Counted from the first letter of the stretch, positions 6,654 through 53,936 are shown. The stretch is 53,936 bases of DNA from Patescibacteria group bacterium (GCA_038064355.1 JBBTTG010000019.1:1-53936), one strand, 5' to 3'. Translations and numbers: made by a program. The notes: a model not told the origin generated them from the letters alone.

Positions 6654-6800
6654 TCTTTTCTCCCTCCTTGGGAGTTTGGGGGTTTGTGTTGAACAGAGCG
6701 AAAAACTGACACCATTAAAGCATTATCCTTGACTTTTGTCAATGTTTCATCTATCTTCCCAAGAGATCTTCGCACTTCGCGGAGATAAGGAGGAAAGACC

Positions 6801-8941: not shown

Positions 8942-8976
8942 TTTTCAAAAAAATCCCCCCGATCGGAATCGGGGGG
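8942..8976 (-). terminator. Rho-independent terminator downstream of the 9004-9549 gene
   Basis: On the minus strand: CCCCCCGAT-TCCG-ATCGGGGGG followed by ATTTTTTTG. Confidence 0.75.
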
Positions 8977-9003
8977 CTATAAGCCAGCGAAAGTTTTTGA
9001 CGG

Positions 9004-9549: not shown

Positions 9550-9615
9550 GGCGCGCGTCTCCTGTGTGAAAAGGGCACTCTCACCGTAGCTTAAAAAAGG
9601 CATAAGGTCAAGCCA

Positions 9616-9662
9616 TTGACAAGGGGAGGGAAATTCTATATCATACTGTTCAAGTATGATAT
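9616..9662 (+). promoter_or_regulatory. suf operon promoter with an overlapping palindromic operator
   Basis: TTGACA (9616-9621), a 17 nt spacer, then TATCAT (9639-9644). A perfect 10 bp inverted repeat ATATCATACT-gttca-AGTATGATAT spans 9638-9662 and covers the -10 element. Confidence 0.65.
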
Positions 9663-9671
9663 CTTCGTTTT

Positions 9672-10061
9672 ATGGCCTATCTCAATAAAGAAATTGACTA
9701 CGCGCTTCAGTTGATGTCCGCACTGCGCGGACATGATGAAGGAGTGCCGCTCTCACTGAAAGCTTTTGCCAAAGATGCCGGTATTTCTTTTCTTTTTTTG
9801 CAAAGGATCGCAAGCAAGCTCAAAGAGGCGGGTCTTGTTCGGGCGCGATTGGGCGCCTCGGGTGGGTATTTTCTGTCATACTCTCCCGAAGGGGTGAGCT
9901 TGGCCAATGTCATTGCTGCCATCGATGGGAGTTTCGGGGTGGTGCCGTGCGTGGCGGGTTTTTGTCCGCAGGCGAAAATGTGTGGACACAAAAATTCTTT
10001 TCTTTCGCTCGATCAAGAGCTCAAAGTTTTTTTTGCCAGCAAGAAACTGTCACAGTTATGA
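9672..10061 (+). CDS. Rrf2-family transcriptional regulator (IscR/SufR-like)
   Basis: The N-terminal wHTH is YALQLMSALRG...LSLKAFAKDAGISFLFLQRIASKLKEAGLVRARLGASGGY, with a C-terminal Cys cluster. Its stop overlaps the sufB start (ATGA). Confidence 0.85.
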   Translation: MAYLNKEIDYALQLMSALRGHDEGVPLSLKAFAKDAGISFLFLQRIASKLKEAGLVRARLGASGGYFLSYSPEGVSLANVIAAIDGSFGVVPCVAGFCPQAKMCGHKNSFLSLDQELKVFFASKKLSQL

Positions 10062-11467
10062 AAGCGGAAATACCGATGCAGGATATAACCCGACGGGAAC
10101 TCTATGATCAGGCCGACGCTACTCGGTCTCGCTTTGTTTCGCCCCCCGGCTTGAACGAGGGGACCGTCCGTGAGATTTCACGGCAAAAAAATGAGCCTGC
10201 GTGGATGCTCGAGAAGCGCTTGTCCGCGTTCGCGCTCTATCAAAAGGCGTCCCTGCCAACCTGGGGTCCGGATTTGAGCGGACTGGACTTAAGTAAGATT
10301 GTTTACTTCGCGCGTCCGGAGGCTGATGAATCCAAGAGTTGGGAAGACGTGCCCGAGGAGATCAAAAAAACCTTTGACCGATTGGGGATTCCCGAAGCCG
10401 AGAAAAAGATACTGGGCGGCGTGGGCGCGCAATATGATTCGGATGTGGTGTATCACAATATCCGGGAGGACATTGCCAAGCAGGGCGTGATTTTTGAAAA
10501 TATGGACACGGCGCTCCGTGATCACGAGGAGCTCGTGCGGAAATATTTTATGACGAGTTGCGTGCCCATAAACGATCACAAGTTCGCCATGCTCCACGCC
10601 GCGGTCTGGAGCGGCGGCACTTTTATCTCTGTACCGCGGGGCGTCAAAGTTTCTATGCCCCTACAGGCCTATTTTCGGATGAACGCGAAAGCCGGCGGGC
10701 AGTTTGAACACACGCTGATTATCGTGGACAAGGGCGCGGAGCTTCATTATATTGAAGGATGCAGCGCACCGCGGTTTGACGTGAGCGCGTTGCATGCGGG
10801 GTGCGTGGAGATTTTTGTGCACGAGGGCGCGCGGACGCGTTACACGAGTATAGAAAATTGGAGCAAGAATACCTACAACCTCAACACCAAGCGCGCGCTC
10901 GTGGACAAAGATGGTACGATTGAATGGGTGAACGGAAATTTCGGCAGCGGGGTGACCATGCTCTATCCATGCAGTATCCTGCGCGGAGAAGGCGCGCGAG
11001 CCGACAGTCTCGGCATTGCATTTGCCGGTCCTGGTCAGCATCAGGATACCGGACTCAAGGTGATTCACGCGGCGCCGCGCACCACTTCGGTAATGAAATC
11101 AAAAAGCATCAGCCGCGGCGGCGGAGTTTCCACCTATCGCGGCTATGTGCGTATCGCCAAAAATGCCGCGCAGTCCAAAAACAGCGTGGTCTGCGACGCG
11201 CTGTTGGTGGGTGATACCTCGGTTTCAAATACTCATCCGTTTATGAAGATTGAGCGCGCGGACGCCACGGTGGCCCATGAAGCGACCGTTGGAAAAATTG
11301 GCGATGAAGAGATTTTTTATCTCATGAGTCGCGGTCTTACCGAAGAACAAGCCTTGCGGATGGTGGTGAGCGGTTTTGTGGAACCCATCGTGAAAAAATT
11401 GCCGCTTGAGTATGCGGTCGAGATGAATCGCCTCATCGAAATGGAGATGGAAGGAGCTGTCGGATAA
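10058..11467 (+). CDS. sufB: Fe-S cluster assembly protein SufB
   Basis: Typical SufB sequence (GAELHYIEGCSAP, TYNLNTKRA, HEATVGKI). The start was trimmed to ATG 10058. Confidence 0.95.
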   Translation: MKAEIPMQDITRRELYDQADATRSRFVSPPGLNEGTVREISRQKNEPAWMLEKRLSAFALYQKASLPTWGPDLSGLDLSKIVYFARPEADESKSWEDVPEEIKKTFDRLGIPEAEKKILGGVGAQYDSDVVYHNIREDIAKQGVIFENMDTALRDHEELVRKYFMTSCVPINDHKFAMLHAAVWSGGTFISVPRGVKVSMPLQAYFRMNAKAGGQFEHTLIIVDKGAELHYIEGCSAPRFDVSALHAGCVEIFVHEGARTRYTSIENWSKNTYNLNTKRALVDKDGTIEWVNGNFGSGVTMLYPCSILRGEGARADSLGIAFAGPGQHQDTGLKVIHAAPRTTSVMKSKSISRGGGVSTYRGYVRIAKNAAQSKNSVVCDALLVGDTSVSNTHPFMKIERADATVAHEATVGKIGDEEIFYLMSRGLTEEQALRMVVSGFVEPIVKKLPLEYAVEMNRLIEMEMEGAVG

Positions 11468-11482
11468 AGATGCAAGACTAAA

Positions 11483-12616
11483 ATGGAAAATCAATTATTG
11501 GAAAAACAGAAAGAGAGGGTGCGGGAAGTATTCGCTTCCTTGCCTCTGCCGAATTTCAAGCACGGACTCAATATTCACTCCGCGCCGGATTTTGTTTTTC
11601 CGTTTGAGCGATCTCTCACGCCGGAACGCGCGCCGTGGAAGCTCATGAAACAAAGCGGCTCGGTGGGGATTGAAGATCTCGCACTCGCAGTACGACGGTC
11701 GGAAGTGGCGCGCTTCATAGAGGATGGGAAATTTTTGGAAGCAAAAGACAAGATTGACGCCTGGAATGTGCTTTCGGCTTCTGCCGGACACTATGTGCGC
11801 TTGGAGGGGGAGTGTATGGTTTCCTTCAATGTGGATTGTTCGAAAGAGCGCCATGATCAAGTCATTTTTCATGCTTTGCCGGGGAGTCGCGCGCAGGTGG
11901 TGATTCGGTATCGCGGTAAGCCGCGACGGAGTGATGGTACGTTTCAGACAGAGCGCATCCTGGCCGCCTGTGAAGAGGGGGGCACACTTTCCATAGTCTC
12001 GCTTCACGAGGGTGGTCAGCCGATTGTTTTTCAAAATCGGCAGGCGAAGGTCGCGCGTGATGGTAAGATGGAGTGGAATGACTTCATGGGTGGTGCAGAG
12101 TTTTTTTCTTTGCGCGTGAATACGGAGCTTATTGGTGAGGGCGCGCGCGTCGGGCAGACGCTCGGATATGCGGGCGCGGGAAAAGCGATTGCGGATATTG
12201 ACGCGAGGATTCTTCATCGCGCGCCGCGCACGGATTCCGACATGCGCATGCGGCTTGCCGCGAGCGGACAATCGAGAATCGTCTGCCAGGGAACGGTGGT
12301 CATTGACCCCCGGGCTCGCGCGGCAAACGGCTTTCAGGATATCAAGGGTATAATTTTTGATACCGCCGAGATTGATCCGGTGCCGCATCTTGAAATTGGC
12401 AACGCCGATGTGAAGTGCGGGCATGCCGTGACCGTAAGCCCTTTTGATGAAGAGACGTTGTTTTATCTCTCTTCACGGGGTATCGGCGAAGCGGATGCGA
12501 GGAAGACTCTCTTGAAAAGTTTCTACCGTTCGCTTGTGGGTAAGAATATCGGGGCCGCGACGGTCAAAATATGTGCGCGTTTTATAAAAAAAGCCGTCGC
12601 TTCAATGGCATCGTAA
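11483..12616 (+). CDS. sufD: Fe-S cluster assembly protein SufD
   Basis: SufB/D beta-helix family (HRAPRTDSDM, GHAVTVSPFDEETLFYLSSRGI). Its position follows sufB. Confidence 0.85.
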   Translation: MENQLLEKQKERVREVFASLPLPNFKHGLNIHSAPDFVFPFERSLTPERAPWKLMKQSGSVGIEDLALAVRRSEVARFIEDGKFLEAKDKIDAWNVLSASAGHYVRLEGECMVSFNVDCSKERHDQVIFHALPGSRAQVVIRYRGKPRRSDGTFQTERILAACEEGGTLSIVSLHEGGQPIVFQNRQAKVARDGKMEWNDFMGGAEFFSLRVNTELIGEGARVGQTLGYAGAGKAIADIDARILHRAPRTDSDMRMRLAASGQSRIVCQGTVVIDPRARAANGFQDIKGIIFDTAEIDPVPHLEIGNADVKCGHAVTVSPFDEETLFYLSSRGIGEADARKTLLKSFYRSLVGKNIGAATVKICARFIKKAVASMAS

Positions 12617-12621
12617 ATCCT

Positions 12622-13854
12622 ATGAATACTGAACAGATTAAAAAAGATTTTTCCATATTTTCTCACGCGGCTCGGTCCGGGAAGCCTTTGGTGTATCTTG
12701 ATAACGCGGCTACCTCGCAGACGCCTGATGAGGTGTTGGAGGCGATGAACGCCTATTATCAAAAATACAGATCGAATATCCACCGCGGGGTGTATGCCAT
12801 CGCCGAGCGGGCGACCTCCGCTTATGAGGGCGCGCGTTTAGCGGTTGCGGAATTTATCGGTGCCGGCGATCCGGGGGAGATTATCTTCACCCGCGGCACC
12901 ACCGAGGGATTGAATATTTTGGCAAGCCGGTTGACCCTTGGGCTTTCCGCGGGCGACGAAGTGGCGGTGAGCGAAATGGAACATCACGCAAACCTCGTTC
13001 CATGGATGCAGGCCGTTAAAGCGCGAGGATTGACGCTGCGCTTTTTACCCGTGCGAAAAGACGGACGGTTGGACATTGAAGCCGCGCGCGCGATTATCGG
13101 CCCGCGCGTCAAAATCGTCTCGCTGTGCCACGCGAGCAATGCCCTGGGTCTTGTTAATCCCGTCCATGAGATCGCGGATATGGCGCACGCGCATGGCGCC
13201 GTCGTGGTGGTGGACGGAGCACAAAGCGTTCCGCACCTGCCGGTGAATGTCGAGGAGCTTGGCGCGGATTTTTTCGCTTTTTCCGGACACAAGATGTTTG
13301 GGCCAACGGGTATCGGCGTCCTGTGGGGGAAAAAAGCATTGCTGGAAAAGATGGAACCGTTTTTATACGGCGGCGACATGATTCAGGAAGTGACTCTTGA
13401 TGGCGCGACATGGACCGACGTGCCGTGGAAATTTGAAGGCGGTACCCCACCCATTGCCGAAGCGATCGGACTTGCCGCGGCCGTACGGTACCTCCGGCGT
13501 CTCGGGATGGAAAATGTGGTTCGTCATGAGCGCGAGCTGACTCGATACGCGCTGGAACGGATGTCCGCCCTCGGGGGAGTGATGCTCTATCCTGCGGGAG
13601 ACGCCCCCGACGCGCCGGATCGCATAGGAGTTATCGCGTTCAATATAGAAAAAGTGCATCCGCATGATGCGGCCTCCATTTTGGATCGCCATGGTATCGC
13701 GGTGCGCGCCGGTCATCACTGCGCCATGCCGCTTTTGCGCAAACTGGGGATTAATTTTTCTCTGCGGGCGAGTTTTTCGGCATATAACACGCGCGAGGAT
13801 GTTGACCTGCTTATTGCGGCGATCGCAGACGCCCAAAAAATTTTTCACGTGTAA
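12622..13854 (+). CDS. sufS: Cysteine desulfurase SufS (class V aminotransferase)
   Basis: YLDNAATSQ, the PLP-lysine motif FSGHKMFGPTGIG, and RAGHHCA. The start was trimmed to MNTEQIKK. Confidence 0.93.
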   Translation: MNTEQIKKDFSIFSHAARSGKPLVYLDNAATSQTPDEVLEAMNAYYQKYRSNIHRGVYAIAERATSAYEGARLAVAEFIGAGDPGEIIFTRGTTEGLNILASRLTLGLSAGDEVAVSEMEHHANLVPWMQAVKARGLTLRFLPVRKDGRLDIEAARAIIGPRVKIVSLCHASNALGLVNPVHEIADMAHAHGAVVVVDGAQSVPHLPVNVEELGADFFAFSGHKMFGPTGIGVLWGKKALLEKMEPFLYGGDMIQEVTLDGATWTDVPWKFEGGTPPIAEAIGLAAAVRYLRRLGMENVVRHERELTRYALERMSALGGVMLYPAGDAPDAPDRIGVIAFNIEKVHPHDAASILDRHGIAVRAGHHCAMPLLRKLGINFSLRASFSAYNTREDVDLLIAAIADAQKIFHV

Positions 13855-13856
13855 GT

Positions 13857-14243
13857 ATGGAAGATTTTCAGGGCGACGAGCTCTATCGGGAGAATATATT
13901 GGATCATTACCGACATCCGCATAACACCGGGGTGATGGAGCAGTGCACTCACCGCGCGCGCGAGGTCAATCCTTTATGCGGCGACGAGATCGAGATTTTT
14001 TTGCGGTTTGACGAAGTGGGGAAAGCCGCGAATGTTTCTTTTGTCGGACAGGGATGCGCCATCAGTCAGGCGGTGGTGTCTATGCTCACTGATTGGGTGA
14101 AAGGGAAAAGTCGTGAGGAGCTCGCAAGGGCGGATGAGACATATGTGCGGCAATGGCTCGGAGCGCCGGTGAGTGTCTCGCGGGAGAAGTGCGCATTTCT
14201 GGGTTTACGCGCTCTGCGGAGGGCCATTGATATCAATAATTGA
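13857..14243 (+). CDS. sufU: SufU/IscU-like Fe-S scaffold or sulfur acceptor
   Basis: LYRENILDHYRHPHN, NPLCGDEI, GQGCAISQA. Confidence 0.88.
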   Translation: MEDFQGDELYRENILDHYRHPHNTGVMEQCTHRAREVNPLCGDEIEIFLRFDEVGKAANVSFVGQGCAISQAVVSMLTDWVKGKSREELARADETYVRQWLGAPVSVSREKCAFLGLRALRRAIDINN

Positions 14244-14253
14244 ATCATACACT

Positions 14254-14976
14254 ATGCACACTTTAGAAATCAAAAATTTACACGTGGCCGTGGATGGAAA
14301 AGAAATCGTGAAAGGTGTAAATTTTTCCGTGCGCTCCGGGCAGGTGCACGCGCTCATGGGTCCAAACGGCTCGGGCAAGAGTACGCTTGCCAACGCTTTG
14401 CTCGGCCATCCGCGCTACACTATTACGGACGGGAAAATTTTCATGGACGAAAAAGATATAACGGCAGAGAAGACTCATCTTCGAGCGAAGGCGGGGGTAT
14501 TCCTTTCCATGCAGTATCCGCCGTCGGTGGCCGGACTCAATGTCGGGCAATTTTTACGCACGGCCTATCAAGAGCTTACAGGGTTAAAAGTTTCCGTGCA
14601 GGAGTTCCATAAAAAAATAAAGGCGGACATAGCACAGCTGGGCATGGACGCATCGTTGTTAAGACGCGGCTTAAGTGAAGGGTTTTCGGGTGGCGAGAAA
14701 AAGCGCATGGAGATTCTGCAGATGTTGGTACTTGAACCAAAGATTGCGATTCTTGACGAAACGGATTCAGGGCTCGATATCGATGCCCTCAAAGCCGTGG
14801 CAAAAGGCATCAGCGTCATGCGCGAGAAAGGCCTTGGGGTTTTACTGATTACGCACTACACGCGATTTCTTGAATATCTCATGCCGGATTTTGTTCATGT
14901 CATGAGCGATGGAAAGATTATCCGTGAAGGCGGACAGGAGGTGGCTCGCGAGATTGAAGAGCAGGGGTATGATTAA
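14254..14976 (+). CDS. sufC: Fe-S assembly ATPase SufC
   Basis: Walker A GPNGSGKST, signature FSGGEKKR, Walker B ILDETDSGLD. The start was trimmed to MHTLEIKNL. Confidence 0.95.
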   Translation: MHTLEIKNLHVAVDGKEIVKGVNFSVRSGQVHALMGPNGSGKSTLANALLGHPRYTITDGKIFMDEKDITAEKTHLRAKAGVFLSMQYPPSVAGLNVGQFLRTAYQELTGLKVSVQEFHKKIKADIAQLGMDASLLRRGLSEGFSGGEKKRMEILQMLVLEPKIAILDETDSGLDIDALKAVAKGISVMREKGLGVLLITHYTRFLEYLMPDFVHVMSDGKIIREGGQEVAREIEEQGYD

Positions 14977-14999
14977 AAAAAATTGAAGAAGGTTACAAT

Positions 15000-15302
15000 A
15001 TGTTACAAGAGAAAAAGCTCACAAAAGAAAATATAGAGGTTACGCTTCAGACGATTCTTGATCCGGAGGTTGAGGTCGACATCTGGACTATGGGTTTGAT
15101 TTATCGAGTGGGTATAAGGGGTGATACAGTGGACGTCGATATGACCTATACAACGCCTCTGTGTCCTTTTGGGCCGGAGATTGTTGGGCAGGTGAAGGCG
15201 AAGATTCTCGAGCTCGGAGCCAAAGAAGTAAGAGTGAACGTGGTGTTTGATCCGCCCTGGAAGCCGCCTGCAGAGCTCAAAGAAATACTGGGGATGGAAT
15301 AA
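15000..15302 (+). CDS. DUF59/SufT-like Fe-S assembly factor
   Basis: 100 aa with ILDPEVEVDIWTMGLIY...TTPLCPFG. Confidence 0.8.
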   Translation: MLQEKKLTKENIEVTLQTILDPEVEVDIWTMGLIYRVGIRGDTVDVDMTYTTPLCPFGPEIVGQVKAKILELGAKEVRVNVVFDPPWKPPAELKEILGME

Positions 15303-15332
15303 AAAAAGTCCCGACTAGCGTGAGCTGTCGGG
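15302..15332 (-). terminator. Hairpin terminator between convergent genes (T-run on the minus strand)
   Basis: On the minus strand: CCCGAC-AGCTCACGCTA-GTCGGG followed by ACTTTTTTT. The hairpin overlaps the stop codon of the 15315-15566 gene. Confidence 0.55.
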
Positions 15333-15566
15333 GGTGGGGAAAACCGGCTCGCGGATCTCGAGGATGTAACCGCCTTCGGCGAGGATTTCCATGAGACGTT
15401 CTTTTTTGACCGCGTGGTGGATTGGGTTGCCTTGCGCGCGCCACTGCACGAGCTCGCCGGTAAAGCCAAGAATTTTGATTCTTGGGCGCTGGGTGGTGCA
15501 GGGTTTGTCGCTTGCGGGCGCGCGCCAAATCTGTCCTTCGGCAAGTTGAATGCTTTTTGCATCCAT
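15315..15566 (-). CDS. Hypothetical small protein (83 aa)
   Basis: ATG at 15566 with GGAGG 10 nt upstream. No family was recognised. Confidence 0.5.
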   Translation of the reverse strand: MDAKSIQLAEGQIWRAPASDKPCTTQRPRIKILGFTGELVQWRAQGNPIHHAVKKERLMEILAEGGYILEIREPVFPTPDSSR

Positions 15567-19057: not shown

Positions 19058-19067
19058 TATGTAATTT

Positions 19068-19188
19068 GAGACCGTAGAAAAACGCGATCTGCTTTGTTGA
19101 AACCTGCGGTATTCGCTCACCGTACCTTTCAGTACGGCTCGCTCACTCCTCGGTTTCGCCTCGCATCTCATCGTTTTTCTACAGTCTC
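19068..19188. repeat. Family-D MITE-like element inserted between rpsB and tsf
   Basis: Identical by eye to 8340-8460. Confidence 0.9.
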
Positions 19189-19229
19189 AAATTGTTCCCC
19201 GCGAAATTTTTTTTGCAACATTTTTATAT

Positions 19230-31526: not shown

Positions 31527-31653
31527 GCGCTTTTGTTGTAAAAATAGTGAGCGGATATGGAAAGAATCCTTCTGTGTATAACTCCCATTTCAAGTGAGCT
31601 TTTTTTCTGATAAAATAAATGGGTGTAATTTTTAGTGATGTTTGTGTTTTTTT

Positions 31654-34230
31654 ATGGAAAAAGAAATACTTGAAGCGCTTGCAACGCGCACACGCCGGAC
31701 TCCCTATACGAAGCGGCGATCGGTAACGGCGGAATTTTCGGAGGATATGGCGTTTCAGTCTCCTCCGCCGTCTTCTCCACGGCAGACATCAGGGTCGGGG
31801 AGTGTATTGGGAAAATGGGCGACTGCTCTATCGCGCTTTACCCTGTACGCGCTTCTTTTTCTTTCTCCATTCTTCTTTTTGCCCTGGGTGAGTAATTCCG
31901 TCTATTTGGGCAAGCAATTCCTGGCGGCGTGTCTTCTTTCCCTTGCGGCTCTGCTTTTTACAGTCAAGGTACTCGCGGGCGGCGAGTCGTTTACCTACGC
32001 CAAGATGAGCGGAGGATTCCTTTTGTTCCTCCTCGGGGTGGTATCGGCGGTGAGCGCGTACCTTTCGGGCGCCAGGAGTTTGAGTTTTTGGGGGTTCGGC
32101 GGCAGTGAGCCGTTTGCCGGTATCTCCATTATTCTCATCATGCTGTTTTATTTTCTCTCCCTCATCTATTTTCACGATACGCGAGTTCGGGAGAAGGTGG
32201 TGGTTCTTTTTGGATATGGCTCTCTGGTGCTTTTCTTGGGAAGCTTGGTCGCGATTCTTGGAGCGGGATTATTTCACCTTGAGTTTTTTGTGCGGTTATT
32301 CGGGAGCGCGGGATGGAATCCGTTTGGCACGCCCAACGCCTTGGCGCTGTTTGCCGCTACTGTTTTTTCCTATGCAGCCGGATATCTCTTGATGGGGGGC
32401 GGGCGTTCAGGCCGTGAGAGTACGGTATGGGTTCTTAATGTTATTCTGGGAACTCTCCTCATGCTGGTGATCGGATTTCGTCTCGCCTATCTCGTGGCCG
32501 CCATCTCCATGGTTGTTTTACTGGGGCTTTCCTTTGCCCGGTTTCGCGGAGAATTCGTCAGGCGTTCCAACCTGGTTCTTTTGGGAACGGTTTTTTTTCT
32601 CGCGCTTTTCCTATTCAAAATATCACTTGCCTCGCTCGTTGCTTTCCCTGCCGAGGTTGGACCCAATGTCAGGTTATCATTTCAGATTGGCGTGAGCTCC
32701 ATGACGGAGAGTGTGAAGAATTTGATCATCGGGTCCGGTCCGTCTACGTTTGCCTATGACTATGCGCGGTATCGGCCCGAAGAGCTCAATCAAACGGCTC
32801 TGTGGAATGTGCGGTTCACTTCCGGATATGCCGCGCTCCCGACCCTCATGGCGGAACTTGGTTTCCTTGGGGTGCTTTCGCTGGCAATATTCCTGGTTTT
32901 CCAAGGAGTACGATTTTTGAAGGGCGTACTCGCCGCGGATGACAAAGGGGCGGCCTCTATCACTGCGGCGTTTTTGGGAACACTCGCGGGGATTGTTTCT
33001 CTCGGTGCTTACCCGATCAGTTTTGTTTCTTTCCTCTATCTGATGTTCTTTGTTGCGCTTGGAGTTACATCGCTTGCGCGAGCGCAAGGACTTGAGCGTA
33101 CTTTTTCTTTTGCTATTTTGTCCCACAAAGCGCTCTTGGTTTCTTTGGCCATTATCTGTCTTTTCCTGGGATCACTTTTCCTGCTTCTTACGACTACGCG
33201 TCATTTGGTTGCTGAGGTGTATTACAGTTCTGCCGTGCGTGCCTATCTCAAACAGGATACCGACAAGGGTTTTGATCGTTTCAACAAAGCAGTTCAGTGG
33301 TATAATGATGATGAGTATTCTCGTACCTATGCGGTTGCGCTGACGGAGACGACCTTGAATCAGTCTCAAGATGAAAAAGCAGATCCGGCGTTGTTGCAGG
33401 CGGGGTTTCAGAATGCGATTGGACTCGCGCAGAGAGCAACGGTGATTAATCCAAAGGATCGTGAAAACTGGCTGGTTCTCGGTTCGGTGTACGAACGCTT
33501 GATCGGGGTGATGAGCGGTGCCGAAACCGCGGCGCAGGATGCCTATCGAAAAATAGAGGAGCTTGAGCCGGCAAGTCCACTTTCGCATTTAGCGCTGGGT
33601 CGTGTCTCGCTCACGGCCGCAAAGGCGATTCAGGGCGCTATCACTTCCGCGCAGGGGAGGCAGGGTACCGATCAAAAGGCGATAGGTGAGGCTACCAAGC
33701 GGAAGGATGCGCTCGTGGCGCAGGCTCGCGAGGAGCTTCAAAAAGCGCAGGAGAAGAAACCGAATTTTGAGGCGGTGTATCTCTTGTGGGCGCAGCTTGA
33801 AGAATTTTTGGGAGACAAGCAAAAAGCTCTTGAGAAGATCATTGAAGCGCGAAAATTGAACGCACCCAATTTGGATTCATTGTTTACTTTGGGGAGATTG
33901 TACTACGAAACCGCCCAATATGAGAATGCGCGCGCCGCGTTTGAGAATATCGTCAAGGCATCGCCCGAGCACCGCAATGGTTTGCTGTATCTTACCCTGG
34001 CTTACGATAAGACAGGGATGAAAAACAAGGGGATTGAGACGATAAGGAAGCTTGCCGTGCTTGAGCCGGAGAATACGCTCGTCAAGGAAATTCAGAGGAA
34101 TCTGGAAGCCGGGCGCGATGCGTTGTCTGGAGCCGGCTTGGAATCTTCGGTGACTCAAACTGAGAAGGAAGGTGAGCCTATTCCGAGTGAGCAGGGAAGT
34201 GGTGTGACGGGAGTCAGAAAGGAAAAGTAG
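31654..34230 (+). CDS. Polytopic membrane protein (O-antigen ligase/polymerase-like) with a C-terminal TPR domain
   Basis: More than 10 hydrophobic segments followed by TPR-like repeats (LVLGSVYERL, LGRLYYETAQYENA, LTLAYDKTG). The start was chosen at MEKEIL. Confidence 0.6.
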   Translation: MEKEILEALATRTRRTPYTKRRSVTAEFSEDMAFQSPPPSSPRQTSGSGSVLGKWATALSRFTLYALLFLSPFFFLPWVSNSVYLGKQFLAACLLSLAALLFTVKVLAGGESFTYAKMSGGFLLFLLGVVSAVSAYLSGARSLSFWGFGGSEPFAGISIILIMLFYFLSLIYFHDTRVREKVVVLFGYGSLVLFLGSLVAILGAGLFHLEFFVRLFGSAGWNPFGTPNALALFAATVFSYAAGYLLMGGGRSGRESTVWVLNVILGTLLMLVIGFRLAYLVAAISMVVLLGLSFARFRGEFVRRSNLVLLGTVFFLALFLFKISLASLVAFPAEVGPNVRLSFQIGVSSMTESVKNLIIGSGPSTFAYDYARYRPEELNQTALWNVRFTSGYAALPTLMAELGFLGVLSLAIFLVFQGVRFLKGVLAADDKGAASITAAFLGTLAGIVSLGAYPISFVSFLYLMFFVALGVTSLARAQGLERTFSFAILSHKALLVSLAIICLFLGSLFLLLTTTRHLVAEVYYSSAVRAYLKQDTDKGFDRFNKAVQWYNDDEYSRTYAVALTETTLNQSQDEKADPALLQAGFQNAIGLAQRATVINPKDRENWLVLGSVYERLIGVMSGAETAAQDAYRKIEELEPASPLSHLALGRVSLTAAKAIQGAITSAQGRQGTDQKAIGEATKRKDALVAQAREELQKAQEKKPNFEAVYLLWAQLEEFLGDKQKALEKIIEARKLNAPNLDSLFTLGRLYYETAQYENARAAFENIVKASPEHRNGLLYLTLAYDKTGMKNKGIETIRKLAVLEPENTLVKEIQRNLEAGRDALSGAGLESSVTQTEKEGEPIPSEQGSGVTGVRKEK

Positions 34231-34424: not shown

Positions 34425-34829
34425 ATGACGGAAAATACGCCGCCGACCAGCCAGGAAATTTTGCCGACCATTCAGGATGTTCTTGAGGCCGTAAACGAGT
34501 TTGCCAGTCATGTAGACAAGCGGTTTTCGGATATAGACAAGCGGTTTTCGGATATAGACAAACAGTTTTCGGGTATAGACAAACAGTTTTCGGGTATTCG
34601 CGAAGAGATGGCGACAAAGAGTGATCTCAACCGTTTTAAGCTAGACTTGATTGATGTCATAGATGAGAAGAACGCCGATCTCAAGGCTGATCTTACTATC
34701 CTTATGAGAAAAGAAGATAAGAAGGTGGTGAGTTTGATTGATCTTTTGCGAAAAAAATCCGTCATTGATAATACAGAGGCGGCAAAGATTCTTGGTATGG
34801 ATCCGTTTCCGCAGGATGTGGTTATATAA
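34425..34829 (+). CDS. Small coiled-coil protein, paralog of 26470-26793
   Basis: EILPTIQDVLEAVNEFASHVDKRFSDIDKRFSDIDKQFSGIDKQFSG...MDPFPQ. Confidence 0.65.
   Translation: MTENTPPTSQEILPTIQDVLEAVNEFASHVDKRFSDIDKRFSDIDKQFSGIDKQFSGIREEMATKSDLNRFKLDLIDVIDEKNADLKADLTILMRKEDKKVVSLIDLLRKKSVIDNTEAAKILGMDPFPQDVVI
34512..34595. repeat. 21 bp tandem repeat x4 inside the coiled-coil gene
   Basis: GTAGACAAGCGGTTTTCGGAT / ATAGACAAGCGGTTTTCGGAT / ATAGACAAACAGTTTTCGGGT x2, encoding the heptad DKRFSDI / DKQFSGI. Confidence 0.95.
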
Positions 34830-34851: not shown

Positions 34852-37800
34852 ATGCGAAAAGGAGTCATTATAGCAAAAAGTCTGCTCTGGGCGGCATCTT
34901 TTGTGTTTTTTGTCGGTATACTCGGTGCGCGTGCCGGTGTACTCACTCCATCTGCCGCTCCCGGAGCCACCATGCGCACCTTAACCGAGATTTTTGACGC
35001 GCTTGCCGGCACCTATGATGCTACGTCGCAATCCGCATCGGCAAATGGCAATGTGGTGCAACAGCTCAAATATATCGCCACTCTTGGCATTCAGAATATC
35101 TACACGAATTCCTCATCGGCCACCATCACGACCGCCAGTGGCAAGGATGTAACTTTTAGTTTGGCGGATACCGCCACGGATTCAGACATCATCGTGGATA
35201 TTTTGGGCACGGGTAACACCTTTGAGGTGCGCGACACCGGCACCGCCGTATTCACTGTTGCCGATGGCGGAATAAGTACCGTTACCGGATCGCTTGGGCT
35301 TGCTCCAAACGGTGCGGGAGCCGGGGCGACCAGCCCCGTGCGGTTTTATGAGCTTGCCGCCGGTGGGTCCAATTACATTGCCTTCAAGGCTCCCGATGCC
35401 ATTGCCGCAAATGTAACTTGGATATTGCCCGATGCCGATGGCGCGAGCGGACAATCGCTCTCGACGAATGGCAGCGGAACATTGAGCTGGACTACTCCAT
35501 CGGGAGCGGGCGATATTACCGCCGTTGGTTCCATGATTACCTCCGCCGTTTTTGCCGATACCACCGCTGACGATGATTGGCTCGGCTTGGGCGCCGCGGC
35601 CGGACGCATTGAGTTTGACGATCAGGCGACTGATGAAGTGAATATTTTGAATGCCAGCGTGGGTATCGGCACCAGCACCCCGGGTTCAACGCTTGACGTA
35701 ACCGGTACGGTCAATATCAGTTCAACGCTTACGGTTGGCGGAACGACTACGTTTGACGGAGTGCAGATTATAGATAATACGGGTGTGGAAGCGTTTCTCG
35801 TCCGTCAAAATGCTGACGCGGGCGATGTATTTACAGTAAACACCACCGCTCCCTCTGTAACGCTTGGGACGAGTGTTTCCCTCACCACCACCGGCGGCGG
35901 TTCTCTCACGGGAACATGGACCGACCTTGGTTCCGTAACCACCGTAGACATCAACGGAGGCACGATTGACGGTGTAACGATCGGAGGATCATCCGCCGGC
36001 GCCGGTACATTTACAACCCTTCAGAGCACGCCCTCAAAGACCGTCGCCTCGGCAACCGGCGCTGTCTATGACGGCTTCACCATTCCCGCCGCCACAATGA
36101 CGGCTTCGGGAAGCACGGCCATCACCACGGCAACCGGATTTAATCTGATGAATGTATCCATCCCGAACATCGCCACCGCGGCCAATGTAACCAATTCGTC
36201 TACGGTGTACATCGCGGGCGCTCCGACCATTTCCGGAGGCGGGGCGATTACCAATGCCTACGCCCTCTGGGTGGACGCGGGAGAATCCCGTTTTGACGGG
36301 AATCTTGAGTTTGGAACCGGTGTAGCCATCACGGCCGGTGATTATATGATTGGCCGCGATGCCGATGGCACAAACCAGCTTCATTTCAATGTGCCAACCG
36401 GAGCGTCAATGGAATGGAGCATCAACGATGTTTCAAGAATGGTGATGAATAGCTCCGGGCAATTGGAACTGCGTCAATTTTCTACTGACGCGGTTGCCAA
36501 TCAACTCACTGTACGAAAAGCGCGTGGAACGGAAGGATCCCAAACGATTGTCGCAAATAATGATAACCTCGGTCTCGTTGAATTTCAAGGTTATGATGGA
36601 GCAGGCACTCATCAGCCAGCCGCTAGGATTCTTGCAAGAGTGAATGGAACTCCCGGAGCGGGAGATATGCCCGGAATCTTATCCTTGCAGACAACCCTAG
36701 ACGGCGCGGCTGCTCCAACGGAAAGGATGACCATTGATAACGGTGGAAACTTCGTCTTTACGCAGGGAGCGCAAGCATCCGGCTCGCCCACCGGCCTCAC
36801 CTTCACCGGCGGAGCGCATACCACGCTTGCCGCATCAACTGAAGCAACTGATATCAACTTCAATTTAGCCAGAACAGTCCAATTTGCCACAGGAGCTCTT
36901 GCGAGCCAGAGAGCAATGTTAATTCAAGCTCCCACCTATGCTTTTGCGGGCGCATCCACACTCGCAAGCGCGTCAACATTGGTGCTTACCGGCGCTCCCC
37001 AAGCAGGAACCAACGCGACTATCACAGCGACCTATGGATTGGTTGTCAATTCAAATACGTACGCGAGTAGCGAGGCTTATCAGGCAAACATCGGAATGCC
37101 GGGAATTTCTAACGGAATTGGAGCCGTGGCAAACCGTTTTGGGTTATCAATTACCGGCTCTAATACTTCGCTCGGGAACCAAACTGCCGCCTTAAGTTCT
37201 CTTATAGGGTTGTTTATCGATCCGGGAACATACGTATCCACCACAAATACAAGAACGGTAACGCAAGCCACTGGTTTAGTGGTCGGTCCTCCCTCGGCGG
37301 GAGCGAATGTTGCGATGACCACGGTGGCGTCTGGAGCGTTCGGAGACAATGCAACCCATGTCAGCGCCGCCGGGTTTAATTATTCGGATATCATCACTGG
37401 CGGCAATACCTTAACGCTTACCGGCACCACCAATGTTACCAGCACACCCGGCGTATCCAGCGTCAATGTCGGGCAGATTACGGTTACAGATTCTTCCGCC
37501 GTGACGGTGAATAATTCCGCGAGTGTTTATATCGCCGACGCTCCCATTGCGGCTGGTTCAGTAACCCTAACAAATGCGTATTCCTTATGGGTGGATGCGG
37601 GAGCGGCGAGATTGGATGGCACGCTGGCCTTGAATGATGCGGCAACTCTTACAAAAGACGGTATCGCCGCCACATCAACCGATGGTTTCGTACTCCAGAA
37701 TACGACCGATTCCACCGTAGGCGTTCCAAACCAATGGTCGCCTCGCGCGAGACAACACGCCGAGGTTTGGGATACCGACGGGAGCAACGATACATTTGAT

Positions 37801-39786
37801 TTCATACAGGAGGTAAAGGGCACCAGCGCGGCAACGACTTTGGCCGACTTCACCTTGTCCATGTCGAAAAACGGAGGGGCGTATAACGATTTGATTTCTG
37901 TTGATGAAGCGGGAAACCTGGCGATTCTGAACCAGCCGGCACAAATCCAATTCGCCAATGGCCAGTATTTTCAGGATAATAACAACGGAGGATTGAATAT
38001 TTATTCCCCGGCGGCATTGAATTTCTCTCTTGGGGCAAGCTATCCGAATACGAGTCCAATTTGGGGAGTCACGGGCGGCACAAGGACGGCCGGCGCGGCG
38101 GACGACAAAGGTTTCAGCTTTACCAATACGCTTAATGATTCCTCCACCGCCGGTGGAGAATCCTATACGGCGTTCTTTGTAAACATCACCGAAACCAACA
38201 AGACGGGCTGGCCAACGGTAAACCTGATGGATTTGCAGGTTGGCGCGGTGAGCAAGTTTCTTGTGAATGACGCGGGAGGTATAACAAGCGCAGGCGGACA
38301 AACATCAATCACACCCACTTTTTCCGTTGCTTCCGCCGCCGGGGCGGTCTATAACGGCCTCACTATTCCCGCCACAACGATGACATTGTCGGGTTCAACT
38401 GGTGTTACCACCGCAACAGGATTCAATCTGATAAACATTGCAATTCCCAATATCGCCACGACTGATGCGAACGCCGATGTTACCAATACGGCAACGGTTT
38501 ACATTGCCGGCGCTCCGACCATTTCCGGAGGCGGGGCGATTACGAATTCCTACTCTTTGTGGGTTGATGCGGGAACGGTGAGGTTTGATGGAGCGGTTAT
38601 TATGGGCGGACTTGCTTCGGGCACGGGCGGCGGCACCTATGATGCTATTTGTTTGAATACCGCCGACAATGCGCTTACCGTGAATACCAACGGAGACGAT
38701 TGTGTTGTTTCTTCGCGACGGTTTAAAGAGAATATTGCGAATCTTGATCTTGGTCTCTCGTTCATTAACGCTTTGACTCCAAGGCAGTTTAATTACATCG
38801 GAGAAGGCGATTCGCGCGTCGGATTCATCGCTGAAGAAGTGGCGGCAATTGATTCACGTCTCATGTTTTATGAAAATGATGGAGTTACCGCGCGCGGTGT
38901 CAGGTATCAGGATATGACAGCCGTGCTTACAAAAGCGGTGCAGGAACAGCAGGCGCAGATACAGAAGTTAACGTTAGATTTACAGGGGTTATTGAATGGA
39001 GGCGGGTCATCCTCGTCAGGCGGGTCGGCCTATACCGCCGGATATTGGTCGCTTGACGACAAGGGGAACCTGGTCGCGGATAAGGCGATTGGATTGAAGG
39101 TTTCCACGAGCAAGGGTGAGCGGACGCTGATGGCGCTTCTTGGCGCCAAAGCGGAGCTTATGCTTTCCGGAAGCTCGGAGCTGGTGGGCGGAGAGAGGAG
39201 GATTTATTTTCAAGAGTTTGATGAGACCTTCGCCGAGCTCGTTTCCGCGACTACACCGTTTAAGGTCTTACTTACACCCACTTCGTCCACACAAGGTCTC
39301 TATATTGCCGAAAAAATCAAAGAACTGGTTGAGGGTCGGGAGCGTTATGTTGGTTTTCGTGTAAAGGAGCAGGGAAGCGGCACATCTTCCGGTACATTTG
39401 ATTGGGTGGTGGTGGCGGTGCGCGAGGGTTTTGAAGGGGATGCGCCGGTGGTGCCGGCAGTGGCGGCGCCGATAGCAAACCCCTCACCCCAACCCTTTCC
39501 CACAGGGGGAGAGGGAGACGCGACAGAACAATCGCCAGTTGAACCAGTCGCGCCCGTAGCTCCGGTTGAGCAGGCGGCTCCTGTTGTTCCCGTTGAACCG
39601 GTAGCGCCCATTGAGCCGATAACTCCGGTTGAACCCGCACCTGTTGCTCCGTCTGCTCCCGTTGCACCACCGATTGTTCCCGAAGTGCCAGTCGAGCCCA
39701 TAGCACCAGTGGAACCGGCGGCTCCTATTGAAGAACCTGTCGCTCCGATTGAACCACCGGCAACCGCTGAACCCCCAGCGACTTAA
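34852..39786 (+). CDS. Giant secreted/anchored tail-fibre-like surface protein (1644 aa) with an internal peptidase-S74 intramolecular-chaperone domain
   Basis: - AAGGAGG SD upstream.
- N-terminal TM/signal segment.
- Tail-fibre-like motif [39 protein letters not shown].
- Three roughly 90-aa modules ending in [27 protein letters not shown].
- S74-like segment [12 protein letters not shown]...VGFIAEEV...[24 protein letters not shown] at about 38710-38975.
- Pro-rich PVEPxAP tail. Confidence 0.8.
39478..39520. repeat. Family-B-like GC-rich palindrome inside the giant gene
   Basis: CCCTCACCCCAACCCTTTCCCACAGGGGGAGAGGGAG, translated as [14 protein letters not shown]. Confidence 0.6.
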
Positions 39787-39787
39787 A

Positions 39788-39925
39788 CGGTTCTCTCCCT
39801 TTGGAAAAGGGAGTGGCCGAAGGCCGAGGGATTTGCGTCAATGGTTTTGGGAAAATCCCCCTTAATCCCCCTTGTTTCTCCGCCAGAGGCGGATCCGCCT
39901 CTGGCGGAGAAGGGGGAAGTCAAAA
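39788..39925. repeat. Family-G element with a nested perfect palindrome (39868-39909)
   Basis: CTCTCCCTTTGGAAAAGGGAGTGGCCGAAGGCCGAGGG...AAAATCCCCCTTAATCCCCCTT, interrupted by CTCCGCCAGAGGCGG-AT-CCGCCTCTGGCGGAG. Confidence 0.8.
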
Positions 39926-39934
39926 GGGAATTCT

Positions 39935-40171
39935 ATGACACGATGGATGATCTATCTAACAGCGGCCATACTCATCATCGGCATGATGCAATTTTTTGCC
40001 GTGCGTGCCGGCAGTCTCAATCCATCGGCAACTCCGGTTGGCACCATGAAAACCACCGAGGAGTCATACAATGTCATTGTGGGTACTAACGATGCTTCGG
40101 GTGTGAGCGCGAATATCAACGGCGATATCCTGCAACAGCTCAAAGCGGTGAGGAATGGATTTGGACTTTAG
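39935..40171 (+). CDS. Small membrane-anchored protein sharing the N-terminal module of the giant protein
   Basis: It has a TM segment, then AGSLNPSATPVGTMKTTEESYNVIVG...SANINGDILQQLK. The giant protein has [26 protein letters not shown]...[11 protein letters not shown]. Confidence 0.6.
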   Translation: MTRWMIYLTAAILIIGMMQFFAVRAGSLNPSATPVGTMKTTEESYNVIVGTNDASGVSANINGDILQQLKAVRNGFGL

Positions 40172-40206
40172 GGGAAATGACGAAAGGCAAATGTCGAATA
40201 AAATGG

Positions 40207-40267
40207 TTGTCATTCCAGCGGAAGCGGGAATCCAGGCCTGGACCCCGCATCAAGTGCGGGGTGACAA
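40207..40267. repeat. Family-F palindromic element
   Basis: TTGTCATTCCAGCGGAAGCGGGAATCCAGGCCTGGACCCCGCATCAAGTGCGGGGTGACAA. Confidence 0.8.
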
Positions 40268-40278
40268 GAAGGGCAAGG

Positions 40279-42522
40279 GTGAAAAATTTAAAAAGCAATG
40301 TGACACATTTTAAAAGGCATTGGATATTAGATATTCGTTATTTTGGTAAGGCGGCTTTTTTCGTTTTTGCCCTATTTTTCGCCTTGCCGGTTCTCGCCGT
40401 CGACACATCCACCGGCGGGATTGATTCCACGAACAAATACGCATGGGGAGAAAACATCGGATGGTTGAATTTTGGCACGAGCGAGGGCGCGGTGTCCGTG
40501 AGTGACTCCGCTCTCTCCGGTTATGCCTGGGGCGAAAATATCGGTTGGATCAGTCTCAATTGCTCCAATACAAGCTCATGCGCGACCGTGAATTATAAAG
40601 TGGCAAATAATGGCGCAGGTACTCTTTCCGGCTATGGATGGGGTGAGAATATCGGATGGGTGAATTTTAGTCCGACATACGGCGGCGTGACTATCGACGG
40701 AAACGGGAATTTTTTCGGCTATGCCTGGGGAGAAAATATCGGGTGGATTGTTTTTAACTGCTCGACGACAAGCTCGTGCGGCACGGTAAGCTATAAAGTG
40801 AATACGGCGTATCGCACGGGAGGCGAGCGATCACAATGCAACAACGCGGCGGATGATGATGGAGATGGCGCCATAGATTATCCGGCGGATACGGGATGCG
40901 AATCTCTTGATGATACATTGGAATTGAATCCCGGTGGCGGTGGGGTTTTTGTTTCCACCGGCGGGGGAGGGATATCCCCGGTTGCGCCCGCGGAAATTTT
41001 ACCTCCTCCGTCCGCAGTTCCACCGGCATCGGAAGTGACAGCCCCGCCTCAACCCGCAGCGCCTCCGGCTGTTTCGCCTCCCGCGCCGCCATTTGAGGTT
41101 CAACCGTTGTTCCCGCCGGCTCTTCCAGAGGCGTCGCCATTTTCCATTTTTGATCGGATCGGGGAGATTATTCGCAAGGCTCTACCTTTCTCCAAAAAAG
41201 AAGAGCCGTCTCTTTTTACCCCCCTCTTGCCGCGGGAATTGCCGGTAGCGCCTCCGGATTCGCTTGCATTACAATGGCCATTAATCCGTAAAGATTCAAT
41301 AAACAGTTTGGTATTTTTGCCGCCGCTAAAGGTGTTGATCTACGCGCCGAGTTTCAAATTCATTGATCCGCGGCCGGTGTCCAAGCTTGCCGATCTTCCC
41401 TTGCCGCCGGAGGTGCAAGTGCTCGCGGAGAAATTTCCGGCCGTGCGTGAAACATTCAAAAAAGTCGGCATCGCGCGTTTTAATGATTTGGAGAAATTGC
41501 AATCAGCGCGTCTCGTTCTTCCCGGATTGAACGATCTCTTGGGGGTTGCCCCCATCGGAGATTTTGGGAAAAGCTTGCCCATAAACGCGCTCACCCCGTC
41601 GCTCAAAATGCAACTGCCCTCGGAGGTGGTGTTTGCCAAGACCGCCGAGCAGGCGATTGATTTTAGAATCGGTCTTCGCGTGACGGATCAAGGAGAAGTG
41701 CGCCAGCGCATTGTGACGATTGTCAATAAACCCCTGAATCTATCCATAAAACCGGATGGTAGCGCAAAGACAGTGAGGGGATATTTGGTGTTTCGGTCCA
41801 AAAATCCGGTGCCAATGAGCACAATGGATTTGCATCTCGCCTCGCTGATGGGACGGTTAATGTTCGCGCGTCCGGTGTTCGCGCAAGCGCAGGATGTGCC
41901 GGTGCGAGTGGAGGAGCAATTGGTGCTTTTGGAGTTTGAATACACGGATTTGGACGGGGACGGTATTTATACGGCGACCATAGAGACGCCCGGGGTGGAT
42001 GGTGAATATGAAATTATTACGGTGATTGATTATACTTCGCCGGCAAAAGGCATCAAAGCGGTGCGTCTCATCACCGTCATAGATCCGGAGGGATATGTGT
42101 ATGAGGAGATTGTTGGAGGCAAGGAAGCGCGCATCCCGGATGCCCGGGCGAGTCTTTTTTGGAAAAATCCAGGAACAGATGCCTATGAGCTCTGGCCGGC
42201 GTATGAGTTTGTGCAGGAAAATCCGCAGACCACCGATACCAGCGGGCGATATTCTTTTCTTGTGCCGAAAGGCGTCTATATTCTTGGGGTTCAAGCAAAT
42301 GGGTATAAGGCATACCGCAGTGAACCGTTTGCTGTCGTGGAGGGAAGGGGTGTGCATATCAATGTGCGTTTGAAGCCGGAATATTGGTTGGAGCGCTTGC
42401 CGGATGCGAAAATACTCCTTCTTGTTGCTTTGATTATTCTGATTGTCTATAATTTTTATCGTGATCGTATGAGGGAAAAGCGAGCGAAAAAAATGCCGCC
42501 GTCCATCACTGGCGAGTTGTAA
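40279..42522 (+). CDS. Surface protein with five YAWGENIGW repeats, a Pro-rich linker, a CarboxypepD_reg-like domain and a C-terminal TM anchor
   Basis: The start was moved to the in-frame GTG at 40279, because the ORF-track N-terminus is a translated family-F repeat. The signal-like segment is FFVFALFFALPVLA. The repeat motif Y[AG]WGENIGW[ILV].[FL] occurs 5 times. Also present: SGRYSFLVPKGVYILGVQANGYKAY and a C-terminal TM segment. Confidence 0.7.
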   Translation: MKNLKSNVTHFKRHWILDIRYFGKAAFFVFALFFALPVLAVDTSTGGIDSTNKYAWGENIGWLNFGTSEGAVSVSDSALSGYAWGENIGWISLNCSNTSSCATVNYKVANNGAGTLSGYGWGENIGWVNFSPTYGGVTIDGNGNFFGYAWGENIGWIVFNCSTTSSCGTVSYKVNTAYRTGGERSQCNNAADDDGDGAIDYPADTGCESLDDTLELNPGGGGVFVSTGGGGISPVAPAEILPPPSAVPPASEVTAPPQPAAPPAVSPPAPPFEVQPLFPPALPEASPFSIFDRIGEIIRKALPFSKKEEPSLFTPLLPRELPVAPPDSLALQWPLIRKDSINSLVFLPPLKVLIYAPSFKFIDPRPVSKLADLPLPPEVQVLAEKFPAVRETFKKVGIARFNDLEKLQSARLVLPGLNDLLGVAPIGDFGKSLPINALTPSLKMQLPSEVVFAKTAEQAIDFRIGLRVTDQGEVRQRIVTIVNKPLNLSIKPDGSAKTVRGYLVFRSKNPVPMSTMDLHLASLMGRLMFARPVFAQAQDVPVRVEEQLVLLEFEYTDLDGDGIYTATIETPGVDGEYEIITVIDYTSPAKGIKAVRLITVIDPEGYVYEEIVGGKEARIPDARASLFWKNPGTDAYELWPAYEFVQENPQTTDTSGRYSFLVPKGVYILGVQANGYKAYRSEPFAVVEGRGVHINVRLKPEYWLERLPDAKILLLVALIILIVYNFYRDRMREKRAKKMPPSITGEL

Positions 42523-43013: not shown

Positions 43014-43194
43014 TATAGGACTTACGCGCTTCCGCCCGGGAGTCCTGTAATTGTGGAACTTCCCATGGCGGAAGCCACAGGGGTTTGACCAATCTCTTCG
43101 TTAAAAGGCTCTGCTCTTGCTCGCCGTAGCTCTACTACGCCTCGCAACATCCTCGCCTTTTGCCTCGACCTTGGTCAAACGCGTAAGTCCTATT
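43014..43194. repeat. Family-E MITE-like element (about 180 bp) with perfect 14 bp terminal inverted repeats
   Basis: ATAGGACTTACGCG ... CGCGTAAGTCCTAT. Its first 66 bp recur at 53871-53936 with two mismatches. Confidence 0.9.
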
Positions 43195-53870: not shown

Positions 53871-53936
53871 TATAGGACTTCCGCGCTTCCGCCCAGGAGT
53901 CCTGTAATTGTGGAACTTCCCATGGCGGAAGCCACA
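53871..53936. repeat. Family-E element, left part (cut by the window end)
   Basis: TATAGGACTTCCGCGCTTCCGCCCAGGAGTCCTGTAATTGTGGAACTTCCCATGGCGGAAGCCACA matches 43014-43079 with two mismatches. Confidence 0.9.

Follow-up and report, generated by a model that had tools for sequence, protein, structure and literature searches.

An internal S74 chaperone domain and a conserved C-terminal cassette in a fibre-like giant protein of Patescibacteria

The window considered here is a stretch of 53,936 nucleotides from a Patescibacteria group bacterium (GCA_038064355.1, JBBTTG010000019.1:1-53936), and its subject is a single plus-strand open reading frame (ORF) at 34852..39786, the fibre gene. An earlier sequence-only reading had placed this ORF at exactly these coordinates and described its product as a 1644-aa tail-fibre-like surface protein with an extension after a Peptidase S74 chaperone domain. 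Profile comparisons identify the protein as a variant member of an unnamed family of giant Patescibacteria proteins whose canonical members carry a G2-like chaperone. It is probable, if well short of certain, that the protein is a Sec-exported, homotrimeric surface fibre resembling phage tail fibres, and that S74 cleavage separates the fibre from a conserved C-terminal assembly or retention cassette. Fibres with self-cleaving chaperones are of a known kind; the cassette is widespread and previously undescribed.

Patescibacteria are ultrasmall, mostly host-dependent bacteria with many giant surface proteins. The present analysis exposes a large unannotated C-terminal cassette, which is found in at least 4,782 sequence clusters and sits behind self-cleaving chaperones borrowed from phage fibres.

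Domain layout and the internal S74 domain

The fibre ORF begins with ATG, and an AGGAGG ribosome-binding site lies 7 nt upstream. Its product is proposed to consist of a signal peptide, an N-terminal docking domain, a mosaic shaft, an S74 chaperone and a cassette made up of a linker, a lectin-like beta-sandwich and an acidic tail. The parts are as follows, with the basis of each in brackets.

34852..34935, plus strand: predicted signal peptide, aa 1-28, predicted cleavage after ARA and before G (sole hydrophobic segment; AXA rule)
34936..35259, plus strand: conserved N-terminal domain, aa 29-136, with the sequence ...QQLKYI (homology to P0006, P0021 and a small neighbouring ORF)
35260..38709, plus strand: variable mosaic fibre shaft, aa 137-1286 (PHROG 9942, patchy matches, module comparisons)
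36025-36306, plus strand: shaft module A of ~90 aa, aa ~392-485 (pairwise comparison)
37360-37629, plus strand: shaft module B of ~90 aa, aa 837-926 (pairwise comparison)
38308-38601, plus strand: shaft module C of ~90 aa, aa 1153-1250 (pairwise comparison)
38710..38994, plus strand: Peptidase S74 chaperone/autoprotease domain, aa 1287-1381 (PF13884 and alignment)
38710-38712, plus strand: putative nucleophile Ser1287 (S74 alignment)
38725-38727, plus strand: putative general base Lys1292 (S74 alignment)
38995..39033, plus strand: Gly/Ser linker, aa 1382-1394 (read from the sequence)
39034..39441, plus strand: post-chaperone beta-sandwich module, aa 1395-1530 (profile family, AlphaFold2, Foldseek)
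39442..39783, plus strand: disordered Pro-rich acidic tail, aa 1531-1644 (composition, repeats)

The S74 segment named in the sequence-only reading is recovered by Pfam: PF13884 (Peptidase_S74) matches aa 1287-1334 at E=1e-8, with 35.8 bits against a gathering score of 22. Alignment with 21 other S74 domains extends the domain to ~aa 1381 and includes a putative C-terminal helix, where the fibre segment aligns with the equivalent conserved segment of the other domains. Conserved in this alignment are the motifs S-[SD]-x-R-x-K-x-N-I, GFIAEEV and IQEQQ, and the fibre sequence S1287-S-R-R-F-K1292-E-N-I aligns with the SDxRxK motif. The conserved cleavage serine that the earlier reading had proposed to look for is thus intact, as is its partner lysine, and the scissile bond is predicted to lie between Val1286 and Ser1287. 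A Ser/Lys(+5) dyad has been demonstrated experimentally in MYRF (S578/K583; PMC3742443), and the structure of T5 pb1 shows an S1264/K1269 dyad with cleavage between T1263 and S1264 (PMC4690869).

The fibre protein resembles the K1F endosialidase and T5 pb1 fibres in its S74 domain, its Ser/Lys(+5) pair, its putative C-terminal helix and its long upstream region of trimeric-fibre-like character (PMC4690869), as well as in the predicted cleavage immediately before the serine. Phage S74 fibres are virion components in which the chaperone forms the extreme C-terminus and is discarded, whereas the present protein is encoded on a bacterial chromosome, carries a predicted signal peptide and continues past the chaperone. 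This continuation, given earlier as about 270 residues, is present and follows an internal S74 domain, with a length of ~263 residues (module and tail). More than 100 aa follow the S74 domain in 7 of the 31 S74 proteins of the comparison set, and the extensions of P0118, P0012 and P0039 look similar by eye, yet are undetected by the module profile described below. Cleavage, if it occurs, would detach a 358-aa fragment (aa 1287-1644), in keeping with the sizeable fragment anticipated from the sequence.

An internal S74/ICA domain is also found in MYRF, where trimerisation-dependent self-cleavage is a release switch that yields a functional trimer from the N-terminal side and a substantial C-terminal fragment (PMC3742443). 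MYRF differs in being eukaryotic, in having a transmembrane (TM) anchor within the C-terminal fragment and in its DNA-binding N-terminal part; the fibre protein has no hydrophobic segment after the S74 domain, and its N-terminal part would be an extracellular fibre. If the preferred reading is correct, the internal S74 logic, otherwise characterised in MYRF of eukaryotes, would gain a bacterial case in the fibre protein.

The N-terminus, read earlier as an anchor or signal, is consistent with a Sec signal peptide. Strong hydrophobicity is confined to ~aa 4-32 of the protein (windows aa 3-32), a stretch followed by GARA and then G, from which the AXA rule gives the probable cleavage site; no hydrophobic window lies outside aa 3-32, including the region after the S74 domain. 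An N-terminal hydrophobic segment is present in 80 of 94 full-length family members and a C-terminal one in 0 of 94, a pattern of signal peptides without a C-terminal membrane anchor that argues for export. The name given by JGI to some relatives, trimeric autotransporter adhesin, was rejected for want of a beta-barrel anchor: the fibre protein has no Pfam match to a YadA-type barrel, and its C-terminus is a disordered Pro-rich tail. The N-terminal 136 aa are 62% identical to those of the positional orthologue P0006, and the N-terminal domain occurs in P0021 too.

Between this domain and the chaperone lies a shaft with patchy similarity to 134 giant proteins in a homologue search. The tail-fibre character noticed earlier is borne out by a match between aa 382-727 and PHROG 9942, 'tail fiber protein', at E=3e-18. 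The three ~90-aa modules reported in the shaft are likewise real: modules A and C share 74% of their residues (z=42 against shuffles) and 84% of their nucleotides, and A with B and B with C share 42-45% identity (z=18-20 against shuffles). Named relatives of the fibre protein are almost all from Patescibacteria, some labelled by NCBI as 'tail fiber domain-containing protein'.

The sole two cysteines of the 1644-aa protein, C1267 (38650-38652) and C1284 (38701-38703), precede the predicted cleavage serine by 20 and 3 residues, and P0092, P0071 and P0118 have a similar pair ahead of their S74 domain. The pair in the fibre protein may form an extracytoplasmic disulfide that clamps the end of the shaft. 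Its position near the cleavage region, as in other S74 proteins, fits an extracytoplasmic disulfide and was counted as a further point for export.

The post-chaperone module family and its chaperone slot

The Gly/Ser linker, the globular segment of about 130 aa and the PVEPxAP tail described in the sequence-only reading are all found after the S74 domain. The AlphaFold2 model of the globular segment, here the module, is all-beta with a pLDDT of 93.8. Foldseek comparison with BFVD returns phage tail-fibre and minor-tail proteins (best E=3.8e-6, TMq 0.67), and comparison with the PDB by fold gives weak partial matches only (best E=4.7e-3, TMq 0.41-0.44), among them the C-terminal domains of the Pam1 and phi297 tailspikes, K1 capsule lyase, H-type lectins and pyocin fibre knobs. 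The modelled fold is thus that of a fibre-tip or lectin-like beta-sandwich. Its likeness to H-type lectins, the Pam1 tailspike and K1 capsule lyase is a partial superposition of the sandwich; no sequence-level relationship to the H-type lectins or tailspike domains was found, and the PDB E-values are weak (>=4.7e-3).

The module and tail match no Pfam, NCBIfam or PHROG model, and the module has no match in a sequence search of the PDB and no tblastn match in 50,697 phage genomes. The tail comprises 114 aa, of which 31% are Pro and none Lys or Arg, with PVEPVAP twice, PVEPAP and PVEPIAP; it contains no anchor motif, and no tandem DNA repeats were found beneath it.

An exhaustive HMMER profile search with the module returned 4,782 cluster representatives at E<=1e-3 and 1,002 at <=1e-10. 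The exhaustive search was needed for the family size, as word-indexed searches with the same profile gave 3 and 1 matches. Among these matches, the fibre module scores 221.6 bits (E=2.5e-61, aa 1395-1530). In almost every one of the best 150 of the 4,782 matches, the module is found 60-250 aa short of the C-terminus in a protein of 1,000-4,500 aa; across the family, it is followed by an acidic low-complexity tail rich in Pro, Glu, Thr and Ser, with a median length of 92 aa. Short family members are gene fragments, and a module encoded by itself behind its own signal peptide was not seen. All named members are from Patescibacteria (Uhrbacteria, Magasanikbacteria or 'Patescibacteria group') and are labelled 'hypothetical' or 'tail fiber domain-containing'; this taxonomic range rests on few named cluster members, and a scan of species-representative genomes by narrow alignment gave a single locus. 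The module could warrant a domain model of its own.

The region directly upstream of the module was surveyed in 120 family members with at least 230 aa in that position. A full G2-like domain, which carries the motif D-[FY]-A-E-[MY]-F and is referred to as the DxAE domain, occupies this slot in 112. An S74 domain, confirmed by Pfam, occupies it in four (the fibre protein, P0178, P0131 and P0136), and the remaining 4 of the 120 have neither chaperone. In nearly all members the motif stands at a constant 172-179 aa before the module, and in the domain profile its D, A and E are invariant. The profile matches 3gqh, the cleaved autochaperone fragment of phi29 gp12, from residue 1 (DFAEYF) at E=0.0045, and also matches a tailspike 'chaperon domain D4'; jumbo-phage virion structural proteins are matched by tblastn. 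The AlphaFold2 model of the DxAE domain, with a core pLDDT >90, has as its best PDB matches 3suc (pre-mature phi29 gp12; E=4.4e-6) and 3gqh (E=7.5e-5).

The DxAE domain of the relatives therefore resembles phi29 gp12 (Peptidase G2) and the tailspike D4 domain both in D-[FY]-A-E at the start of the cleaved fragment and in fold. The phi29 gp12 type is absent from the fibre protein itself, and it is functionally equivalent to S74 in that it trimerises, folds and self-cleaves. Both chaperone types form trimers on which the upstream fibre folds, beginning at its C-terminal end, and both then detach themselves by self-cleavage (PMC4690869). In phage G2 chaperones nothing follows the domain, whereas in the Patescibacteria family the module and tail do.

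Comparison of the S74 profile with the G2-like one shows no relationship (hhalign probability 0.06%), so that two distinct chaperones share one slot. The modules linked to S74 do not cluster together: that of the fibre protein is nearest to the module of P0006, which is not linked to S74, and that of P0131 is nearest to G2-linked modules. From this scatter, replacement of G2 by S74 seems to have occurred more than once. The sequence-only reading had treated the extension as an oddity on a normal S74 fibre; the family comparison points the other way, with the module and tail as the conserved, family-defining element and the S74 domain as the unusual part. A search of one literature library found no paper linking S74 or G2 chaperones to Patescibacteria, which is not proof that the link is new.

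One metagenomic protein from JGI, P0211 (1083 aa), has an internal S74 domain at aa 515-611, a later DxAE motif and the module at aa 879-1001, and may hold both chaperone types.

Proposed fibre maturation and other readings

In the proposed sequence of events, the S74 domains of three chains would trimerise through their C-terminal helices after export and would set off folding of the shaft, starting at the C-terminal end of the shaft. Once the trimer is correct, Ser1287 and Lys1292 would cut between Val1286 and Ser1287, and the mature fibre (aa ~29-1286) would part from a trimeric fragment of 358 aa that comprises chaperone, module and tail. The cassette would hold or register the last-exported C-termini at the cell envelope during assembly, perhaps by binding a conserved self ligand, the cell's own envelope or a neighbouring TPR membrane protein (see below). 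Cleavage would subsequently serve as release, setting the distal tip of the fibre free, and the N-terminal domain would keep the fibre on the cell.

Two unrelated self-cleaving chaperones occupy the same slot with their catalytic residues kept, and the simplest reading is that proteolytic separation of the fibre from the cassette is the selected function. No other part of these mosaic proteins is as conserved as the cassette, from which we infer that it binds something constant and serves as an assembly or retention device rather than as a host-binding tip. A role of the fibre in host attachment, for which it had been put forward as a candidate, is plausible.

Several points weigh against this proposal. 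Cleavage, trimerisation and export are predictions from the sequence, and the family was inspected through the best 150 of its 4,782 matches. The module fold is most like distal phage-fibre domains and lectins, which could mean a retained receptor-binding tip, and adhesion to an anionic cell wall would be unexpected of an acidic tail. The topology sketch is ambiguous as to the side of the membrane on which the TPR domain lies. The DxAE domain is called G2-like from a custom profile and from its fold, with a marginal E-value at the sequence level, and the Pfam Peptidase G2 model does not match it. Finally, P0006 keeps the N-terminal domain and the C-terminal cassette with no recognisable S74 or G2 domain ahead of the module, which indicates that a self-cleaving chaperone is not strictly required. 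The ~180 aa before its module (aa ~2400-2577) match neither the S74 profile, the G2-like profile nor the PDB, and may represent a third type of pre-module domain.

The fold of the module and the architecture of P0006 lend themselves to another reading, in which S74 only trimerises and folds the protein, or cleaves and stays bound, with the lectin-like module as a distal receptor-binding knob and the tail as a flexible extension. Phage fibre and minor-tail proteins, 'K1 lyase C-terminal domain' entries, H-type lectins and pyocin knobs all match the module by fold, P0006 has a module without a recognisable self-cleaving domain, and the P22 tailspike offers a precedent for an auto-chaperone that is not cleaved (cited in PMC4690869). 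Against these stand the retained Ser/Lys of S74 and D-x-A-E of the G2-like domain, which argue that proteolysis is under selection, the flexible Gly/Ser linker between chaperone and module, and the conservation of the module as the most constant part of variable proteins, the opposite of what is usual for receptor-binding tips. On balance, a receptor-binding knob is considered unlikely.

The persistence of the MYRF C-terminal trimer after S74 cleavage (PMC3742443) suggests a further arrangement, in which one precursor yields two products, the fibre and a separate trimeric lectin-like protein with a task of its own, such as coating or binding the cell's own envelope or a host glycan. The 358-aa fragment would contain a well-folded domain, and its module is strongly conserved. 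No ligand or catalytic motif was identified in it, however, and the absence of stand-alone module genes with their own signal peptide among the family members seen also speaks against a separately functioning protein. This arrangement appears improbable, and it is compatible with the preferred reading of a fibre released from its assembly cassette rather than exclusive of it.

The chromosomal locus and neighbouring genes

The fibre gene lies on the chromosome, within a conserved locus for surface proteins. Its flanks, about 35 kb on the upstream side and 14 kb on the downstream side, contain cellular genes only: SufB/D/S, GAPDH, PGK, enolase, iPGM, QueA, PAP2, ManC and YceG on the upstream side, and L10, L7/L12, GT2, DUF4012 and MreB on the downstream side. 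No structural PHROGs occur among the ten neighbours of the fibre gene, which bears out the earlier remark that no phage genes are adjacent, and no tRNA or Rfam features were found in the window. Comparison with an orthologue, which had also been suggested, shows the same four genes in the same order at locus L001 of GCA_028711565.1, beside ribosomal protein and EF-G genes. There the positional orthologue P0006 (2789 aa, L001 10001-18370) has a C-terminal cassette 42% identical to that of the fibre protein.

These flanks bear on the possibility that the gene encodes a tail fibre belonging to a prophage, or to a phage-derived particle such as a tailocin or contractile injection system, lying partly outside the window. 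The PHROG tail-fibre match, the typical occurrence of S74 in phage fibres and the NCBI label on relatives would all suit such an element. Yet the examined flanks are cellular and show no prophage tail module, the four-gene order is chromosomal in L001 as well, the fibre protein has a predicted Sec signal peptide, and the module is absent from the phage genomes searched. A prophage origin was rejected on the housekeeping flanks and the conserved chromosomal synteny, and a fibre of this kind is very improbable.

The immediate neighbours and the homologues of the membrane protein are listed below.

31642..34230, plus strand: polytopic membrane protein (~12 TM) with C-terminal TPR, 862 aa (Pfam TPR, homologues)
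39872..40171, plus strand: small ORF, listed at 99 aa but probably starting at the Met codon at 39935 (paralogy to the fibre N-terminus)
40177..42522, plus strand: 781-aa protein with AWGENIGWxNF repeats (Pfam, repeats, L001 orthologue)
L001 7050-9488: TPR membrane homologue, 41% identity over 802 aa
L004 15479-17863: TPR membrane homologue
L002 ~4308-6344: TPR membrane homologue, E=2e-44

The gene for the TPR membrane protein adjoins giants bearing the module in all four loci with enough flank, a count that covers only the window, L001, L004 and L002. These membrane proteins are ~800 aa long and share a 72-aa loop (aa 330-401) with the invariant pattern GSGPxTFxYxxxRYxP...N.T..WN.RF. The membrane part has no Pfam or PDB match, even with a three-sequence profile. 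A WaaL/O-antigen-ligase-like topology, with 12 TM segments and a large loop between TM9 and TM10, is conceivable for it, though no match supports this.

The TPR membrane protein is a candidate partner. More tentatively, and at well below even odds, the cassette and this protein may together form a previously unrecognised assembly pathway for giant fibres in Patescibacteria, comprising capture, register, folding and a cleavage checkpoint. In such a pathway, the membrane protein or the envelope would capture the cassettes and bring three chains into register, a G2-type or S74 chaperone would fold the fibre, and self-cleavage would act as the checkpoint that releases correctly folded fibres.

The small ORF downstream of the fibre gene consists of a signal peptide and a domain of ~55 aa, and it is 36% identical to fibre aa 3-75 over 76 aa (E=3e-16). 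Its orthologues lie beside P0006 (L001 18870-19139, 55%) and beside P0021 (L003 10019-10270, 45%). This small secreted paralogue may be a partner for the base of the fibre.

The identity of the small ORF also touches a comparison with polymorphic toxins, in which tail-fibre repeats serve as stalks and releasing peptidases precede C-terminal toxins (PMC3482391). By that precedent the fibre repeats would be the stalk, S74 the releasing peptidase and the module the delivered effector, and the architecture is superficially alike. The C-terminal module is conserved across thousands of proteins rather than polymorphic, it is a lectin-like beta-sandwich by its modelled fold with no toxin match, and the downstream small ORF is a paralogue of the fibre N-terminus rather than an immunity gene. 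A toxin-like function is accordingly given very little credence, and the surface fibre with a releasable cassette is retained as the preferred reading.

The 781-aa protein encoded next contains Cys-rich inserts, a Pro-rich region, a CarboxypepD_reg-like domain and a C-terminal TM segment. Its orthologue in L001 (~800 aa) is 69% identical over 191 aa and 39% identical over 567 aa.

A 134-aa coiled-coil ORF with 'DKRFSDIDKRFSDIDKQFSGIDKQFSG' repeats (34425-34829, plus strand) lies directly upstream of the fibre gene and has weak matches to PHROGs of unknown function. A weakly similar coiled-coil gene of 133 aa stands beside P0021 (L003 9598-9999). In L004, tandem giant genes at 1-7827 (>2600 aa read) and 8001-15449 (2482 aa) both end in a G2-like chaperone, the module and an acidic tail, and are followed by the TPR membrane gene.

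Avd-like genes (PF05635, 23S_rRNA_IVP/bAvd) occur near giants at L003 9161-9523 (P0021) and L004 21417-21782 (P0040), which hints at diversity-generating retroelements in these genomes. A link of this kind was dropped for the window, where no template/variable repeat pair or Avd counterpart was seen.

Two sets of direct repeats were noted elsewhere in the window. An intergenic repeat of 134 nt is present in three copies (2626-2759, 8332-8465 and 19060-19193), two of them 99% identical and the third 74%, with no Rfam match. A 66-nt repeat, 97% identical between its copies, lies at 43014-43079, upstream of L10/L7-L12, and at 53871-53936, the end of the window.

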